Shown here in pieces: positions 59,550-64,000 of a stretch of 64,000 nt of DNA (within the stretch, counting starts at the first letter, position 1; each line of letters begins with the position of its first letter). The notes beneath the pieces are model-generated. The model saw nothing but the letters and a program-made list of their open reading frames with translations. It was not told the origin of the DNA and searched no databases. The DNA comes from an uncultured delta proteobacterium (GTDB lineage Bacteria > Myxococcota_A > Polyangia > Polyangiales > Polyangiaceae): contig CAVOKF010000003.1 in the NCBI GenBank assembly GCA_963696385.1, forward strand, positions 288,001 through 352,000, written 5' to 3'. The position numbers and the translations under genes were made by a program.

Positions 59550-60419
59550 GTGGGATCGCCCGGTTCATCGTCCACGCCGAGGCTGTCGGCGAAGGAGCGC
59601 CGTGGTCGTGCTCGATCGGCCCCCGCTCTGGCAACGAATACGCTCCGTCGACTGGCTCGCCAACATCCGACGGCCCGCTGCGAACTGGATCACCGATCCA
59701 CGTTCGAGCTGCTCGTGTCCGTCGTGCTCTCAGCGCAAACGACGGACGTGGCGGTCAACAAGGTCACACCCAAATTGTTCGCCCGCTTTCCGGACGCGCA
59801 CGCTCTGGCCACCGCGGCGCCCCGCGACGTGGAACCTTATGTGTCGACGCTCGGCTTCTTTCGCACGAAGGCCAAGTCGCTCGTGGGTCTGGCGAAAGCG
59901 CTCGTTCGCGATCACGGTGGCGAGGTTCCGCGGACGCTCGATGCCCTGGTCCAACTGCCCGGGGTCGGGCGCAAGACTGCGAACGTGGTCCTCGGGGTCA
60001 TGTGGAATGCCCCCGAAGGGGTCGTGGTCGACACGCATGTGATGCGCCTCAGCCAGCGACTCGGCTGGTCCAAGCAGACGGAACCCGAGAAAATCGAAAA
60101 AGACCTTTGCGTGATCCTGCCGAGGACGGAGTGGAACGCGGCGAGCCACGTACTCATCTTTCACGGCCGCCGCTGCTGCCACGCACGAAAGCCCGCTTGC
60201 ACCGACTGCTCGGTCAACGACGTCTGCCCATCCGCATTCGACGCCGAACAGATCGGTCGAAAGGCGCCGCGAAGACGCCGCGCAGGCGGCCCCGCGACCG
60301 ACGGAAAACCTCGACCGAGCGGAGACGGGGCGGCCGCCTCCGCAATGGGCCGAAATCCGCCGCGAGGTCGGGGTCCGGCTGCTGCTCGAACGGCTACTTC
60401 CTTGCGCGAAACGCGTTGA
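59550..60419 (+). CDS. nth: Endonuclease III
   Basis: LSAQTTD, HhH LPGVGRKTANVV, VVDTHV, and 4Fe-4S motif CHARKPACTDCSVNDVC. Confidence 0.95.
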   Translation: MGSPGSSSTPRLSAKERRGRARSAPALATNTLRRLARQHPTARCELDHRSTFELLVSVVLSAQTTDVAVNKVTPKLFARFPDAHALATAAPRDVEPYVSTLGFFRTKAKSLVGLAKALVRDHGGEVPRTLDALVQLPGVGRKTANVVLGVMWNAPEGVVVDTHVMRLSQRLGWSKQTEPEKIEKDLCVILPRTEWNAASHVLIFHGRRCCHARKPACTDCSVNDVCPSAFDAEQIGRKAPRRRRAGGPATDGKPRPSGDGAAASAMGRNPPRGRGPAAARTATSLRETR

Positions 60420-61428
60420 CCAAGCGCTCGGTTGCGGTATACGGGTCCACCCCTCGGTTCTCCACCTCGCGGACTGCATCGTCGATTCGATCGCCGAGGT
60501 CGTGAATGGCGGCATCGAGGAGCGCCTCCCGCAAAGCCTGGCGAAGCTCTTCGTCGAGCCGGGATCGCCGTCGGTTTCGGCCCGCCACCGTTCCTTCGAG
60601 CCAACCCCGGTGTCGGCCCAGCGCCCGCACGACTTCGTCGACGCCGTCGCCGCGCGTGGCGATGCATTTGACGATAGGCGGGGTCCAGGTTTCGTCGTCT
60701 GAAAGGGCCGAGCGCGGCCTGATGGGTCCTGCGCGCGCACCGTGCGTCACGGCGCCGATGCCCTTGGGAAGTGACCGCATGGCTTCGTTGCCCAGCGAAA
60801 TCATGAGCTCGAGATCGTGCGCGGTCGCGTCCGCGCCGTCTCGATCGGATTTGTTGACGGCGAAGACATCGGCGCACTCGAGCAGTCCGGCCTTGATCGC
60901 CTGAACCTCGTCTCCAAGACCGGGCGTCATCACCACGAGGGTCGAATGGGCGGTGCGGGTGATCTCGATCTCGTCCTGGCCGACGCCGACGGTCTCGACA
61001 AGGATGACGCCGTACGCGGCGGCGTCGAGCACGCGCACGATGTCGCGAGCGCTTCTCGAGAGTCCGCCCAGATGCCCGCGGGTTGCCACGGAACGAATGA
61101 AGACGTCCGCGTCGTTCGCGTGGCGCTGCATTCGGATGCGGTCTCCGAGAATAGCCCCGCCCGAGTAAGGGCTCGTGGGGTCGACCGCAACGACGCCCAC
61201 TCGATCGTGACGCTGCCGGTATGCCGTGATGAGCCGGTCGCACATCGTGGACTTTCCCGCGCCGGGGTTCCCGGTGACACCCAGGACCCATGCCCGGCCG
61301 GTATGCGGCCAGAGGTCCTTCATCAGTTCGTCGCCGCCCGGCAACCGGTCGTCGACGACCCGAAGCGCGCGGGCGATACCACGCGGATCTCGCGCCAGAA
61401 CGCGTTGTACGAGATCAAGTCGATCCAC
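60394..61428 (-). CDS. meaB: Methylmalonyl-CoA mutase-associated GTPase MeaB/ArgK
   Basis: GNPGAGKST, VDPTSPYSGGAILGDRIRM, ETVGVGQDE, GDEVQAIKAG, VNKSD. Confidence 0.93.
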   Translation of the reverse strand: MDRLDLVQRVLARDPRGIARALRVVDDRLPGGDELMKDLWPHTGRAWVLGVTGNPGAGKSTMCDRLITAYRQRHDRVGVVAVDPTSPYSGGAILGDRIRMQRHANDADVFIRSVATRGHLGGLSRSARDIVRVLDAAAYGVILVETVGVGQDEIEITRTAHSTLVVMTPGLGDEVQAIKAGLLECADVFAVNKSDRDGADATAHDLELMISLGNEAMRSLPKGIGAVTHGARAGPIRPRSALSDDETWTPPIVKCIATRGDGVDEVVRALGRHRGWLEGTVAGRNRRRSRLDEELRQALREALLDAAIHDLGDRIDDAVREVENRGVDPYTATERLVNAFRARK

Positions 61429-61477: not shown

Positions 61478-62767
61478 TCAACGCAGGGCCGCGAGTTTGG
61501 CCCGCACGCCGTCGCGATCCACCCCCCCCGCGGAAGCCGACAGGGCGCGGCCATACGCTTCGCGTGCGGCTCGCCGCTCGTTCTGCGCGGCCAGCGCGTC
61601 GCCAAGCGCCGCCCAGCCTGGCGCCCAGTCGGGAAACTCCTCGCTGGCTCGAACGCCGAAGGCGCGGGCACTCGTATCACGGCCCGCAGCATGGCAGGCG
61701 AGGCTTGCATTCACGAGCGGGGTGGGATCGTGGTGGTCGAGCCCCCACGCGGCTTGATACCCCTCGATCGCCAGGTCAATTTCGCCCTTCCGCGCGTTGC
61801 CGTCGGCGACGAGCAACTGCGCGGCGGCGTTGTTGGCCTCGGACCTCAGAGCCGCCTCTCCAGCGCGAATGGCGTCGTCGGCGCGGCCCTCGGCGAGCGC
61901 GACCTGACCCAGCAGAATGCGGGCCTCACCACGGGTCGCGTCAGCGCGCGCGGCGGACTCGGCGGCTTCCTTCGCCTCTGCGACACGGCCCGCGGCGAGG
62001 CGCTCCGCGCCCAGATCGAGCCATGCCTTGCCGAACGAAGGGCGTTCGCGGATCGCCCGCTCGAGCAAGCCGGTCCGCTCCGGCCCGAACGGGAGCGCAC
62101 TCGCCAGCTCGAATAGGCTCTCGGGGCCGAGAGGATCAAGCTCCACCCCTTTCCTCAACTCAGCGAGGCCCTGCGACCGGTCACCGGCCCTCCACAGGAC
62201 ACGCCCCAAGGCCGTGCGCGCGTCCGCTCCGTCGGGTCGCATCGCGATGGCCTCTCGAAAGGAGGCCTCGGCTCGGGCCGAGTCGAGCTCGTATTCGAAC
62301 GCCAGCCCCTGCGCGAGCCGTGCGTCGTAGCACTGTGGGTCTTTCGCAAGCGCCTCCGCCGCTTCGAGCTCTGCCTCCGTCGCTCGCTGCCAGACCAAGT
62401 GCGCGTCTGCGACACACGCATGGCCTTCGGCGCTTGCCCCTGGCACACCGGTGAGTCGCTTGCAGGTGACGAACGCGCGCTGGAAGCTGCCGAGGTCCAT
62501 GTAGACGTGGGGGAGTTCGGTGTCGAGGGCGCGGAGCGCGGTCGGGTTGGCTGCACATACACCGATCCCGCGGCGGAGCTCGACCTCGGCCTCGGCCCAA
62601 CGGCCAGCGCGCCGCAGTGCACGCCCGAACGACAAGGCGGCCTCCCAGTCTCGCGAGTGAGACTGCGCCGCCGCACGTAGGCCCTCGATCTGCGACTCCT
62701 GAGCGGTCCCCGCACGCGGAACCACCAGACCGACCGCCAAAAGGACCGCTCCGAGGAAAACTCTCAT
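61478..62767 (-). CDS. Secreted TPR-repeat protein
   Basis: Signal peptide (MRVFLGAVLLAVGLVVPRAGTA) followed by many TPR-like repeats. Confidence 0.8.
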   Translation of the reverse strand: MRVFLGAVLLAVGLVVPRAGTAQESQIEGLRAAAQSHSRDWEAALSFGRALRRAGRWAEAEVELRRGIGVCAANPTALRALDTELPHVYMDLGSFQRAFVTCKRLTGVPGASAEGHACVADAHLVWQRATEAELEAAEALAKDPQCYDARLAQGLAFEYELDSARAEASFREAIAMRPDGADARTALGRVLWRAGDRSQGLAELRKGVELDPLGPESLFELASALPFGPERTGLLERAIRERPSFGKAWLDLGAERLAAGRVAEAKEAAESAARADATRGEARILLGQVALAEGRADDAIRAGEAALRSEANNAAAQLLVADGNARKGEIDLAIEGYQAAWGLDHHDPTPLVNASLACHAAGRDTSARAFGVRASEEFPDWAPGWAALGDALAAQNERRAAREAYGRALSASAGGVDRDGVRAKLAALR

Positions 62768-62897
62768 TGCCCTCGACCGGCTACTTTGTAGCACATTACC
62801 ACGAATCCTGTCCTCGTCGGTCGCATCCTTGTTGAACAGAAAGGCCGGTTGTGTTCCCTTTCGGCCCCGCGCTTCGCGCCATTACAGAAGGCCACCC

Positions 62898-64000
62898 GTG
62901 ACCAAGACGACCAAGCTGACCGATCTCGTGTCCTTCCAGGACTGCAGCTTCGCTGCCCGGTACGCAACGCGCAAGATTCCGATGACCACGTTGTTCGAGG
63001 GCTACCTGGATGGCCTGATCGACATCCCGGACATGGACGCTTTTCTGGACGCCCGTCGCGAGCTCGTCAGTTATGCGCTGACGAAGCACCACCTGGAGTT
63101 CTTCGTCACCCGCTTCATTCCCGAGGTCGCCATCCACTCCAAGGAACAGGACGAGCGCATCGTTCGCGAGCACTACGATCGCGGCGACGACTTCTTCGAT
63201 GCCTTCCTCGGTGAGCGCATGGTGTACACGAGCGCATTCTTTCGTGACGAGCACGATTCGCTTGAACAGGCGCAAGACAACAAGCTCGACTTGGTGTGTC
63301 GCAAGTTGATGGTTCGATCCCGGCGACGAGATGCTCGACATCGGCTGTGGATGGGGAACCCTTGCGATGTACGCGGCCAAAAACTACGGCGCGAAATCGA
63401 CCGGCATCACGATCAGCAAAAACCAAACGGCCTTCGGAAATCGGCGGATCGCGAAAGCCGGGTTATCGGAGCGAGCTCGTATCGAGTGCCTGGACTATCG
63501 CGACATCCCGAGACGCCAATACGATCGCATCTCGAGCCTCGAAATGGTCGAGCACGTGGGCATCAAGAACTTCGGCAAGTTTTGTCAGCTCGCATACGAT
63601 CTCTTGAAGGACGACGGTCTGTTTTTATTGCAGTGGACGGGTCTACGCCGCGGCGGAGCGCTCGGTGTGCCGGTGATTGGGCTGCGCCCCGAGGACCTCA
63701 TTTGGGGTCTTTTCATGAGCAAGTACATCTTTCCCGGCGCGGATGCTTCGCTCCCGCTGAGCGACGTCGTGAGAGGACTCGAGAGGGTGGGCTTCGAAAT
63801 CCAGTCCGCCGAAAACGTGAGCGTCCACTATGGACTCACGATCCAGCGGTGGCATCAGAACTGGCAAAAGCACGAACACAGCGTGGTCAAAGCGTACGGC
63901 CAGCGCTGGTACCGCCTTTGGCATCTGTTTCTCGCATGGTCGTGGCGGATCGCGATGCAGGGCAACGCCGCTTGCTTTCAGATCGTCGCGCACAAGAACC
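62898..64000 (+). CDS. SAM-dependent lipid methyltransferase of the cyclopropane-synthase family, fungal sphingolipid C9-methyltransferase-like; 1-nt frameshift near 63312; 3' end outside the window
   Basis: Manual translation from GTG 62898 (AGAAGG RBS) gives KIPMTTLFEGYLDG, IPEVAIHSKEQDERIVREHYDRGDDFF, LGERMVYTS and EQAQDNKLDLVCRKL. After a +1 shift it continues DPGDEMLDIGCGWGTLA, DYRDIP, LEMVEHVG, EDLIWGLFMSKYIFPGADASLPL and YGQRWYRLW. Confidence 0.88.
   Translation, partial: MTKTTKLTDLVSFQDCSFAARYATRKIPMTTLFEGYLDGLIDIPDMDAFLDARRELVSYALTKHHLEFFVTRFIPEVAIHSKEQDERIVREHYDRGDDFFDAFLGERMVYTSAFFRDEHDSLEQAQDNKLDLVCRKLMVRSRRRDARHRLWMGNPCDVRGQKLRREIDRHHDQQKPNGLRKSADRESRVIGASSYRVPGLSRHPETPIRSHLEPRNGRARGHQELRQVLSARIRSLEGRRSVFIAVDGSTPRRSARCAGDWAAPRGPHLGSFHEQVHLSRRGCFAPAERRRERTREGGLRNPVRRKRERPLWTHDPAVASELAKARTQRGQSVRPALVPPLASVSRMVVADRDAGQRRLLSDRRAQE

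Follow-up and report, generated by a model that had tools for sequence, protein, structure and literature searches.

At the end of the window, by which we mean the whole 64,000-nucleotide stretch of DNA that was analysed, lies a gene for a SAM-dependent methyltransferase of the CMAS fold. Translation places it in two reading frames, from position 62898 to the window edge at 64000 and on to about 64128 (Table 1); in the continuing sequence (locus L001), the stop codon is 128 bases beyond the window end. The frame that opens with GTG at 62898 contains KIPM, IPEVAIHSKEQDERIVREHYDRGDDF and QDNKLDLVCRKL, and the +1 frame from 63319 contains LDIGCGWGTLA, NQTAFGN, EDLIWGLFMSKYIFPGADASLPL, YGQRWYRLW and QGNAACFQI. 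The original prediction had quoted eight peptide strings from this gene, and all eight are present in the translations of the two frames. It had also called the gene invisible in the ORF track, which is true because no single ORF in the list spans both halves; the split into two frames is due to one surplus G. At a related locus (L054), a TPR protein occupies the position equivalent to that of the divergent upstream neighbour ORF.

Table 1. Features of the methyltransferase locus in window coordinates.
Feature	Position	Strand	Basis and remarks
Divergent upstream neighbour, 438-aa ORF with a hydrophobic N-terminus	61478..62794	-	ORF list
Putative Shine-Dalgarno-like GAAGG	62887..62891	+	Read from the sequence; 6 bases 5' of the GTG start
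Methyltransferase N part, 140 codons, GTG start	62898..63317	+	Translation; contains KIPM and HYDRGDDF (63171-63194)
Surplus G, frame-shifting, most likely an assembly error	63316	+	Comparison with orthologue, run contigs and intact proteins
Methyltransferase C part (catalytic domain)	63319..64000	+	Translation; truncated by the window edge
SAM motif LDIGCGWG	63334-63357	+	Translation of the C part
Gln replacing the His of Cfa	63631-63633	+	Residue column comparison
Subfamily signature EDLIWGLFMSKYIFPGADAS	63691-63750	+	Translation of the C part, alignment

The surplus G was found in this assembly and not in the sequences that we compared with it. At the break the window reads GTTCGATCCC, versus GTTC-ATCCC in a 98%-identical orthologue (genome G003). 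The G was absent from the contigs of all three DNA sequencing runs that bridge the site, which come from three studies and show no other differences from the window; one of them (X1) may derive from the same sample as the window, which leaves X2 and X6 as the two runs whose independence at the indel is certain. Two database proteins of 409 aa (P0005 and P0006) use the same start as the window gene and match exactly residues 2-138 of the N part and the entire 269-aa C part, with VH joining the two matches. Because the G is missing from a relative and from all three sets of run contigs, and because two full-length proteins match both halves, we conclude that the gene is most likely intact in nature and that the frameshift most likely reflects the insertion of one base that is peculiar to this assembly.

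It is highly improbable that the frameshift is genuine and the gene a fresh pseudogene in this strain. The given assembly does carry the surplus G, and a minority variant could escape a comparison made with contigs, from which rare variants drop out. However, the bridging runs are otherwise identical to the window, each half has an exact counterpart in intact database proteins, and we saw no further damage. Split matches also occur in three relatives (G005, G007 and G012, in assemblies of 20, 9 and 60 contigs), which suggests that indel errors are typical of such assemblies. Strong matches to the methyltransferase were present in 22 of 24 genomes of the same genus, a count that takes in the unpublished G010, and it is the sole full-length CMAS gene of the source genome (G000), that of a soil myxobacterium. 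Identical contigs in one metatranscriptome library are a weak hint that the methyltransferase is expressed. The contigs of RNA run X15 have a gap over 63031-63326 and do not span the indel site.

Both halves of the protein match the Pfam family CMAS (PF02353), the N part over profile positions 1-60 (E = 8.2e-16; 58.6 bits against a cut-off of 27) and the C part over positions 62-273 (E = 4.1e-52; 177.6 bits against the same cut-off). Matches at these E-values indicate that the peptide strings are not chance occurrences. In the SAM motif LDIGCGWG, the D, G, C, G and W are invariant in a 17-row alignment, and the last G is conserved in at least 90%.

The window protein is a member of the same subfamily as the fungal sphingolipid C9-methyltransferases. 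It is 47-50% identical to the three fungal rows named sphingolipid C(9)-methyltransferase in alignment A2, and has in common with fungal rows the motifs HYDRGDDF, LQxxGLR, EDLxWGLFMxKYxFPGADAS and FLAWS. Among 1.84 billion representatives, the best match after its own cluster was a Coemansia protein (E = 8e-120, 51% identity), and many of the fungal relatives listed for that protein are named sphingolipid C(9)-methyltransferase in UniRef. Names were obtained for five of the ten representative clusters, one of which gave an organism, Coemansia. A maximum likelihood tree of 81 rows, in which the 17 fungal rows are C9-methyltransferases by database name, separated 67 C9-methyltransferase-like rows from 14 Cfa-like rows with UFBoot/SH-aLRT support of 100/100, and the same split was found in a quick tree of 126 rows and in a mixture-model tree of 40 rows with the same backbone. 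The subfamily also includes homologues from MAGs labelled Bacteroidota, Ignavibacteria, Kiritimatiellae and Leptospiria.

The alternative that the protein is an ordinary cyclopropane fatty acid synthase with no more than a resemblance to the fungal enzymes is very unlikely, for all that several observations favour it. The protein matches CMAS, its best solved relatives are Cfa enzymes (5z9o, E = 5.7e-50, followed by E. coli Cfa 6bqc, E = 1.3e-37), and most source names of its close relatives read 'cyclopropane-fatty-acyl-phospholipid synthase family'. Glu239 and Tyr317 of E. coli Cfa are conserved in all 17 aligned rows, C9-like and Cfa-like together, and retention of their equivalents leaves cyclopropanation conceivable. 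However, the 100/100 branch parts the window protein from E. coli Cfa and the CfaB-like rows, and the scores against the NCBIfam Cfa equivalog models were far below their cut-offs. The C part scored 164.2, 151.1 and 144.8 bits against cut-offs of 600, 400 and 650, and the N part 64.5 against 400; the halves were scored apart, and their summed score is still under the cut-offs. In addition, two residues of E. coli Cfa that we take to be its bicarbonate ligands, Cys139 and His266, are substituted. The His266 column holds Gln in 13/13 C9-like rows versus His in 4/4 Cfa-like rows, and the Cys139 column holds 11 Ser, one Ala and one Cys in the C9-like rows versus Cys in all four Cfa-like rows; the window protein has Gln and Ser at these positions. 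Based on identity, motifs, clade and the low Cfa scores, the first part of the original prediction, that this is a close homologue of the fungal C9-methyltransferases and not an ordinary Cfa, holds: the protein groups with the fungal-named rows, outside the Cfa and CfaB-like rows.

The window protein is not a fungal-type orthologue: it has no membrane anchor at its N-terminus, and its branch is basal. A hydrophobic N-terminal segment was found in 0/29 basal bacterial rows, the window protein among them, versus 17/17 fungal rows, the criterion being a Kyte-Doolittle 19-residue mean of at least 1.6 before the HYD motif as computed by a custom script rather than a dedicated TM predictor. In the derived clade, this segment is present in all 17 fungal rows, in the proteins of loci L052 and L053, and in 18 of 19 unnamed rows. 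The anchor-less form occurs in MAGs labelled Myxococcota, Bacteroidota, Ignavibacteria, Kiritimatiellae and Turneriella, and the membrane-anchored form is also found in MAGs labelled Leptospiria and Polyangiaceae. When the tree was rooted on the Cfa-like rows, the window protein was basal in the subfamily, and branches with supports of 96/98, 96/88 and 96/97 parted it from the fungal clade (100/99). In both the 81-row and the 40-row trees, the fungi are nested deep within the subfamily and bacterial lineages are basal, which argues against recent transfer from fungi and makes a bacterial origin of the subfamily look more likely. The gene exchange between bacteria and eukaryotes that had been proposed for this gene is possible, but nothing in the tree points to a fungal gene having entered this bacterium.

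Taking these results together, we consider it probable that the gene encodes an intact, soluble, 409-aa SAM-dependent lipid methyltransferase of the fungal C9-methyltransferase subfamily that methylates a lipid C=C bond. By analogy with its relatives, the most likely action is methylation of the double bond to leave a methyl-branched alkene. With SAM as the methyl donor, the enzyme would methylate one carbon of a C=C bond in a long, membrane-held lipid chain, and the resulting carbocation would then lose a proton, giving a methyl-branched and still unsaturated chain with no cyclopropane ring. Such a proton-loss outcome, predicted for the window enzyme from relatives with no more than about 50% identity, would fit both the subfamily-wide replacements of Cys by Ser and His by Gln and what the fungal enzymes produce. 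With no membrane anchor, the enzyme would be expected to act at the cytoplasmic face in the manner of Cfa. For its substrate, an unsaturated acyl chain of a glycerolipid comes close to an even call, a sphingoid base or ceramide is a serious but lesser candidate, and other lipids account for the remainder.

The original prediction had proposed a bacterial route to methyl-branched sphingolipids. In this reading the enzyme, like its fungal counterpart, would methylate C9 of a sphingoid base that carries a Δ8 double bond, here within a bacterial ceramide, and the bacterium would make 9-methyl sphingolipids. We regard this as possible but somewhat doubtful. The protein's subfamily and the motifs it has in common with the fungal enzymes are consistent with such a route, and the gene is found in MAGs titled Polyangiaceae, Saprospiraceae, Cyclobacteriaceae, Aureispira and Ignavibacteria; sphingolipid producers occur in both Bacteroidota and Myxococcota. 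The most suggestive arrangement is at locus L037, on a 3.1-Mb contig of a MAG titled Kiritimatiellae, where a Cyt-b5-fused front-end desaturase with the boxes HPGG, HDYVH, HNTHH and QIEHH lies directly upstream of the methyltransferase gene on the same strand. The best named relatives of this desaturase are eukaryotic 'Delta(8)-fatty-acid desaturase' proteins (37-46% identity), and together with the methyltransferase it would represent two consecutive steps of the fungal pathway. On the other hand, it is interrupted by one stop and one frameshift in its assembly, and none of the other C9-like loci examined has a nearby desaturase: a tblastn search of 34 loci with this desaturase and six from the source genome matched only L037 itself. 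Across 14 loci, Pfam annotation of 87 neighbouring ORFs revealed no partner gene in common. A PAP2_3 gene near the methyltransferase gene in L044 was set aside as a candidate partner; the family was found in 11 of 14 control genomes and is therefore uninformative.

Several observations in the source genome argue against the sphingolipid reading. The genome has six FA_desaturase genes, none of them fused to a Cyt-b5 domain, and their His-box patterns identified no sphingolipid type. In a tblastn search of the source genome (completeness 96%), the L037 desaturase matched nothing at E <= 1e-3, and with the queries used we found neither a b5-fused Δ8-type desaturase nor a TLC (eukaryote-type) ceramide synthase. 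The search for serine palmitoyltransferase yielded one ambiguous candidate, an AOS enzyme (G000:C8:51148-52608) that scored 231 bits for Spt versus 233 for BioF/Kbl and fell under every NCBIfam Spt cut-off; the other AOS enzyme of the genome is BioF, adjoining BioD. In favour of a sphingolipid role, the Spt-like enzyme adjoins a fatty acyl-AMP ligase and two ketosynthases. Its nearest ESM Atlas cluster is named 'putative 8-amino-7-oxononanoate synthase', a name that does not discriminate between Spt and BioF/Kbl. It does not co-occur with the methyltransferase: orthologues of at least 65% identity were present in 3/10 genomes with the methyltransferase versus 7/8 without it. A lack of LPS would have hinted at sphingolipid membranes, but LpxC is present.

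Methylation of an unsaturated acyl chain in a phospholipid or other glycerolipid, giving a mid-chain methyl-branched unsaturated (or exomethylene) fatty acid, is plausible, if short of probable. The protein is soluble, anchor-less and Cfa-like in architecture, with the NCBIfam Cfa model aligning from position 57 on and covering the N-terminal region of Cfa. The gene stands alone among unrelated genes, as a housekeeping lipid-modifying gene might, and the six desaturases of the source genome are membrane proteins. For one of these desaturases (L025 type), a relative at E <= 1e-50 was present in 8/10 genomes with the methyltransferase versus 2/8 without it, and relatives of two others were present in 4/10 versus 2/8 and 4/10 versus 1/8, in a set of 18 related genomes grouped by the methyltransferase itself and with a threshold chosen after seeing the data. 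There is a precedent in UfaM, which is reported to convert cis-vaccenate in phospholipid to 11-methyl-12-trans-18:1 (PMC7380195). Against this reading, the closest named relatives of the window protein act on ceramide and not on phospholipid, and the domain of the UfaM partner UfaO (DUF1365) was not found: a PF07103 profile search of the source genome gave nothing at E <= 0.01, with a positive Caulobacter control. A route to furan fatty acids is thus unsupported.

The 9-methyl branch of glucosylceramide is regarded as a fungal hallmark; the plant immune system senses 9-methyl glucosylceramide, which also serves as a target for defensins of plants and insects. A 2026 survey counts C9-methyltransferases among fungal-specific rare enzymes (PMC13161914). 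A literature search combining C9-methyltransferase with myxobacteri* found nothing, and our searches found no assayed enzyme from the basal bacterial clade. The original prediction called the route undescribed, which is correct insofar as we found no paper on such myxobacterial proteins, but automatic pipelines already name them: the JGI name 'sphingolipid C9-methyltransferase' is on 12 of the 120 closest proteins, and the ESM Atlas gives the cluster of the window protein the same name.

The conserved anchor-less bacterial branch alters this picture, with fungi nested in bacterial diversity and one bacterium having an adjoining Δ8-desaturase-like gene. Should both of these points hold, the chemistry would be older and wider than believed, and common bacteria of soil, peat and wetland may make methyl-branched alkenyl lipids, possibly sphingolipids. 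If bacterial 9-methyl sphingolipids exist, a "fungal" lipid mark would also be produced by soil bacteria. A fuller scenario, in which the fungal family is bacterial in origin, some bacteria pair the enzyme with a Δ8-type desaturase to make 9-methyl sphingoid bases, and eukaryotes acquired from bacteria the methylation step of glucosylceramide synthesis, is unlikely on present evidence. The window stretch is present in sequencing runs of 14 studies, and its annotation carries a lesson, in that a single indel concealed a conserved gene.

Among known systems, the fungal sphingolipid C9-methyltransferases (EC 2.1.1.317; Mts1/MT1/MT2) are in the same CMAS subfamily as the window protein (100/100) and share with it both departures from Cfa, Ser for Cys and Gln for His. 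They differ in having the N-terminal hydrophobic anchor, in their nested rather than basal position, and in a pathway with a Δ8 b5 desaturase and a TLC ceramide synthase, neither detected in the source genome. On the side of the window protein, a further difference is a 9-residue insert that is present in the three core-clade rows of alignment A2. UfaM of Rhodobacter sphaeroides (cis-vaccenate 11-methyltransferase), likened here by its published description (PMC7380195), is a soluble bacterial CMAS-type enzyme that makes a methyl-branched trans-alkene and not a ring; its system differs in having UfaO. E. coli Cfa (PDB 6bqc) and the CfaB-like proteins have the Pfam family and fold in common with the window protein, and Cfa also resembles it in solubility, similar length, the SAM motif, and the equivalents of Glu239 and Tyr317. 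The window protein differs from Cfa in its separate clade, its scores under all NCBIfam Cfa cut-offs, the changes of His266 to Gln and Cys139 to Ser, and additional residues ahead of YIFPG. The mycobacterial enzymes MmaA1, UmaA and CmaA1 are of the same Pfam family but far more distant (E = 2e-33 to 1e-24), and, at about 290 aa, they are without the N-terminal region present in the window protein; some mycobacterial mycolic acid methyltransferases make methyl branches adjoining a double bond.

The methyltransferase gene of the CMAS family at the end of the window was split over two reading frames. The Pfam CMAS profile (PF02353) matched the N part over profile positions 1-60 (E 8.2e-16) and the C part over positions 62-273 (E 4.1e-52), and therefore the two pieces are one gene split at a single point, with a stop codon 128 bases beyond the window end, as read in the genome copy of the locus (L001). 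All of the peptide strings quoted in the original prediction were found in the translations of the two frames, and the gene was indeed invisible in the ORF track, as claimed: no single ORF spanning it was in the window's ORF list.

Coordinates of the features in the window, elsewhere in its genome (G000) and in a Kiritimatiellae locus (L037)
Feature	Position	Strand	Description
Methyltransferase, N part	window, from 62898	+	GTG start; 140 codons; translation
Methyltransferase, C part	window, from 63319 to beyond the window end (64000)	+	+1 frame; translation
Extra G	window 63316		DNA alignment with G003
P-loop ORF	window 60394-61428	-	344 aa; P-loop GNPGAGKST
Putative epoxyqueuosine reductase-like gene	G000:C3:352188-353489 (L001:2370-3671)	-	convergent, downstream, just beyond the window end; CxxCxxCxxxCP motif
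AOS cluster	G000:C8:46814-52608 (L023:6815-12609)		fatty acyl-AMP ligase, ketosynthase, ketosynthase-like protein, AOS-family PLP enzyme
Kiritimatiellae locus	L037:3877-9107 (3.1-Mb contig)		in order: transposase-like gene (HTH_38 + rve), amine-oxidase-like flavoprotein (opposite strand), desaturase, C9-MT-like gene

The break in the gene is most likely an assembly error. The orthologue in the closest relative, genome G003 (98% identical), was unbroken (412 aa), and alignment with its DNA revealed one extra G in G000. The stretch is matched by at least 20 public runs, which come from 14 studies and bear the labels soil, wetland, peat or simply 'metagenome'. We aligned contigs of three DNA runs (three studies) and one RNA run to it. 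Contigs bridging the site omitted exactly the extra G, with zero other differences, in all three DNA runs, of which X1 is possibly the window's own sample and X2 and X6 are surely independent; the RNA run had no coverage there. Two database proteins (P0005 and P0006, 409 aa) contained residues 2-138 of the N part and the whole 269-aa C part exactly, with 'VH' between, and matches were likewise split in the relatives G005, G007 and G012, whose assemblies have 20, 9 and 60 contigs. Based on this alignment, the DNA runs, the intact proteins and the split matches, we favor an assembly error, and consider it very improbable that the frameshift is real and marks a recent pseudogene. In-frame stops also occurred in the gene at loci L034, L036, L037, L045, L050 and L052. 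These recurrent split matches and stops suggest that such MAGs often contain indel errors, which can conceal genes in ORF tracks.

Two neighboring genes could be assigned provisionally. The P-loop ORF looks, by eye, like a MeaB/ArgK-type GTPase. The convergent downstream gene is probably epoxyqueuosine reductase-like because its counterpart at locus L032 has Pfam Fer4_16 and QueG_DUF1730; this neighbor is common to G000, G003 and L032.

The protein was closer to fungal proteins that bear the name sphingolipid C9-methyltransferase (C9-MT) than to canonical Cfa, as predicted. NCBIfam curated Cfa models gave the C part 164, 151 and 145 bits, far below their cut-offs of 600, 400 and 650. The best solved-structure matches were Cfa enzymes (5z9o, E 5.7e-50; E. 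coli 6bqc, E 1.3e-37), followed by mycolic acid methyltransferases (E 2e-33 or weaker). The intact G003 protein served as query against 1.84 billion cluster representatives. Beyond its own cluster, the top match was P0123, a hypothetical protein from Coemansia, a fungus (E 8e-120, 51% identity); a run of proteins of 440-550 aa that were 42-50% identical came after it. The named relatives listed for P0123 were nearly all fungal, from early-diverging lineages and Ascomycota, and many bear the UniRef name sphingolipid C(9)-methyltransferase; these rows are identified by name and are presumably related to the characterised Mts1. When 109 representatives were compared with the NCBIfam Cfa models, 78 matched at E <= 1e-60 and 31 did not, the latter including 26 of the 28 that were listed nearest the query (P0123-P0167). 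A 17-row alignment put the identity of the G003 protein with three fungal rows at 48, 50 and 47% and showed that it has in common with them the motifs HYDRGDDF, LQxxGLR, EDLxWGLFMxKYxFPGADAS and FLAWS; therefore, the motifs named in the original prediction are real subfamily signatures.

Phylogenetic trees also separated this subfamily from Cfa. A quick tree of 126 rows (all 380-720-aa representatives from the cluster search, 17 selected fungal rows, 10 from myxobacteria, and E. coli Cfa from NC_000913.3) grouped 55 rows, some myxobacterial, some fungal and some unnamed, in one clade (SH-aLRT 100), apart from CfaB-like and Cfa-like rows. For a careful tree (81 rows, LG+G4), 26 proteins were added by translating named genome records; their 7 in-frame stops, spread over 6 loci, were written as X. 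The longest-branch representatives (P0145, P0194, P0201, P0203, P0204 and P0218), fragments, and all but 10 plus 4 named Cfa-like rows were left out. The split between 67 C9-MT-like and 14 Cfa-like rows was supported 100/100 (UFBoot/SH-aLRT).

With the Cfa-like rows as root, the careful tree had at its base two groups of myxobacterial-type rows, made up of MAGs titled Polyangiaceae, Myxococcales or Polyangia, unnamed core rows, and one MAG each titled Proteobacteria, Pseudomonadota and delta proteobacterium. The next branch was a Kiritimatiellae row, followed by a clade of Kapaibacterium, Ignavibacteria, Bacteroidota, Saprospiraceae, Cyclobacteriaceae, Aureispira and Turneriella rows (96/87). 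The final branch was a 38-row clade (96/97). Of its rows, 19 made up the fungal clade (100/99), in which 17 were named as fungal and 2 were unnamed representatives; the others were 17 more unnamed representatives plus two bacterial rows, one from Leptospiria (L053) and one from a Polyangiaceae MAG (L052). A mixture-model tree (40 rows, LG+C20+F+G4) had the same backbone. The original prediction had raised bacteria-eukaryote gene exchange; as judged from these trees, exchange with fungi would not be recent, and the nesting of fungi above basal bacteria, in a tree with a long outgroup branch and unnamed rows that carry no organism label, hints at a bacterial origin of the subfamily.

The presence of a hydrophobic N-terminal segment (19 residues, mean Kyte-Doolittle score of 1.6 or more, own script) agreed with the tree as an independent character. 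It was found in 17/17 fungal rows, in both L052 and L053, and in 18/19 unnamed rows of the 38-row clade, the exception being a fragment. None of the 29 basal bacterial rows had it, nor did any of 10 full-length Cfa-like rows (the 4 named ones, being partial, were left out). In the Polyangiaceae MAG at L052 the enzyme is of a membrane-anchored form and falls in the clade that includes the fungi.

We compared the columns of E. coli Cfa Cys139, Glu239, His266 and Tyr317, which we take to be its bicarbonate site, over 17 rows. The His266 column was Gln in all 13 C9-like rows and His in all 4 Cfa-like rows; the Cys139 column was Ser (11), Ala (1) or Cys (1) in the former and Cys in all of the latter. 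Glu239 and Tyr317 were kept in 17/17. This pattern separates the whole subfamily, the window's protein included, from ring-forming enzymes, and it fits an altered fate of the carbocation, which would be resolved by proton loss to a methyl-branched alkene.

The gene was common in the genus and scattered beyond it. Strong matches (E <= 1e-90) were found in 22/24 same-genus genomes, or 21/23 without G010 (flagged unpublished); of the remaining two, one had fragments and one (66% complete) had no match. The gene was present in 2/16 genomes from other families of the order and in 7 of 150 other genomes drawn evenly from the phylum (3/11 from the same family, 3/13 in f25, and 1/1 scored in f42). Full-length relatives (42-75% identity) occurred in MAGs titled Polyangiaceae, Myxococcales, Ca. 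Kapaibacterium, Ignavibacteria, Bacteroidota, Kiritimatiellae, Turneriella, Leptospiria, Aureispira, Saprospiraceae, Cyclobacteriaceae and Pseudomonadota. The methyltransferase was the sole full-length CMAS gene in G000; some relatives (G009, G018, G023 and G135) have a second, diverged copy (51-69% identity).

The observation behind the original prediction was thus confirmed and the homology half of its interpretation supported. The other half, that the enzyme acts on a sphingolipid, is tentative, with the balance tilted somewhat against it. Of the sphingolipid genes sought in G000, a TLC-type ceramide synthase was not found, and none of its six FA_desaturase genes had a Cyt-b5 domain. One of two AOS-family enzymes is BioF and adjoins BioD. 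The second has a fatty acyl-AMP ligase gene and two ketosynthase genes beside it; its scores for BioF/Kbl and for Spt were nearly equal, it reached none of the NCBIfam Spt cut-offs, and among 18 genomes its orthologue (>= 65% identity) was in 3/10 carriers of the methyltransferase gene versus 7/8 non-carriers. The AOS orthologue was kept in 9/12 same-family genomes searched, one of only 1.8 Mb included, and the cluster may make a long-chain amino lipid (Spt-like).

In favor of a sphingolipid substrate, the C9-MT-like gene in Kiritimatiellae locus L037 is immediately preceded, on its own strand, by a gene for a Cyt-b5-fused front-end desaturase (boxes HPGG, HDYVH, HNTHH and QIEHH; one stop and one frameshift interrupt it in that assembly). 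The best named relatives of the desaturase were eukaryotic 'Delta(8)-fatty-acid desaturase' proteins (37-46% identity), presumably the database name of sphingolipid Δ8 desaturases. The pair corresponds to the fungal two-step module and was seen in only 1/14 neighborhoods scanned. The C9-MT-like gene in L037 has 2 in-frame stops in the matched range, and the locus resembles a lipid-modification module that is mobile or was acquired.

Methylation of phospholipid acyl chains is the alternative. UfaM is a precedent for bacterial CMAS enzymes that make methyl-branched trans-alkenes on phospholipids (PMC7380195). A search of G000 for DUF1365, the partner domain of UfaM, gave no match. A relative of one G000 desaturase (L025 type, E <= 1e-50) was present in 8/10 carriers versus 2/8 non-carriers, in genomes that are kin, in groups defined by the methyltransferase, and at a threshold set after seeing the data; two other desaturases gave 4/10 versus 2/8 and 4/10 versus 1/8. 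We treat this co-occurrence only as a lead.

The suggestion of an undescribed bacterial route held in part. Literature searches (supplements outside their scope) found no paper linking C9-methyltransferase with myxobacteria and, among the papers listed for sphingolipid C9-methyltransferase or 9-methyl sphingoid bases, none about a bacterial enzyme. A 2026 survey counted the three C9-methyltransferases as fungal-specific rare enzymes (PMC13161914). The name itself is not new: JGI gives 'sphingolipid C9-methyltransferase' to 12 of the 120 closest proteins and the ESM Atlas to the cluster, and thus the resemblance had already been caught by automatic annotation. Compared with fungal C9-MTs, the core-clade rows G003, P0108 and P0040 have a 9-residue insert that is absent from three fungal rows in the 17-row alignment. 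Because it has no hydrophobic N-terminal segment, the window's protein is predicted to be an anchor-less, Cfa-like soluble form, and its gene would represent a bacterial form that is new within a known kind of enzyme.
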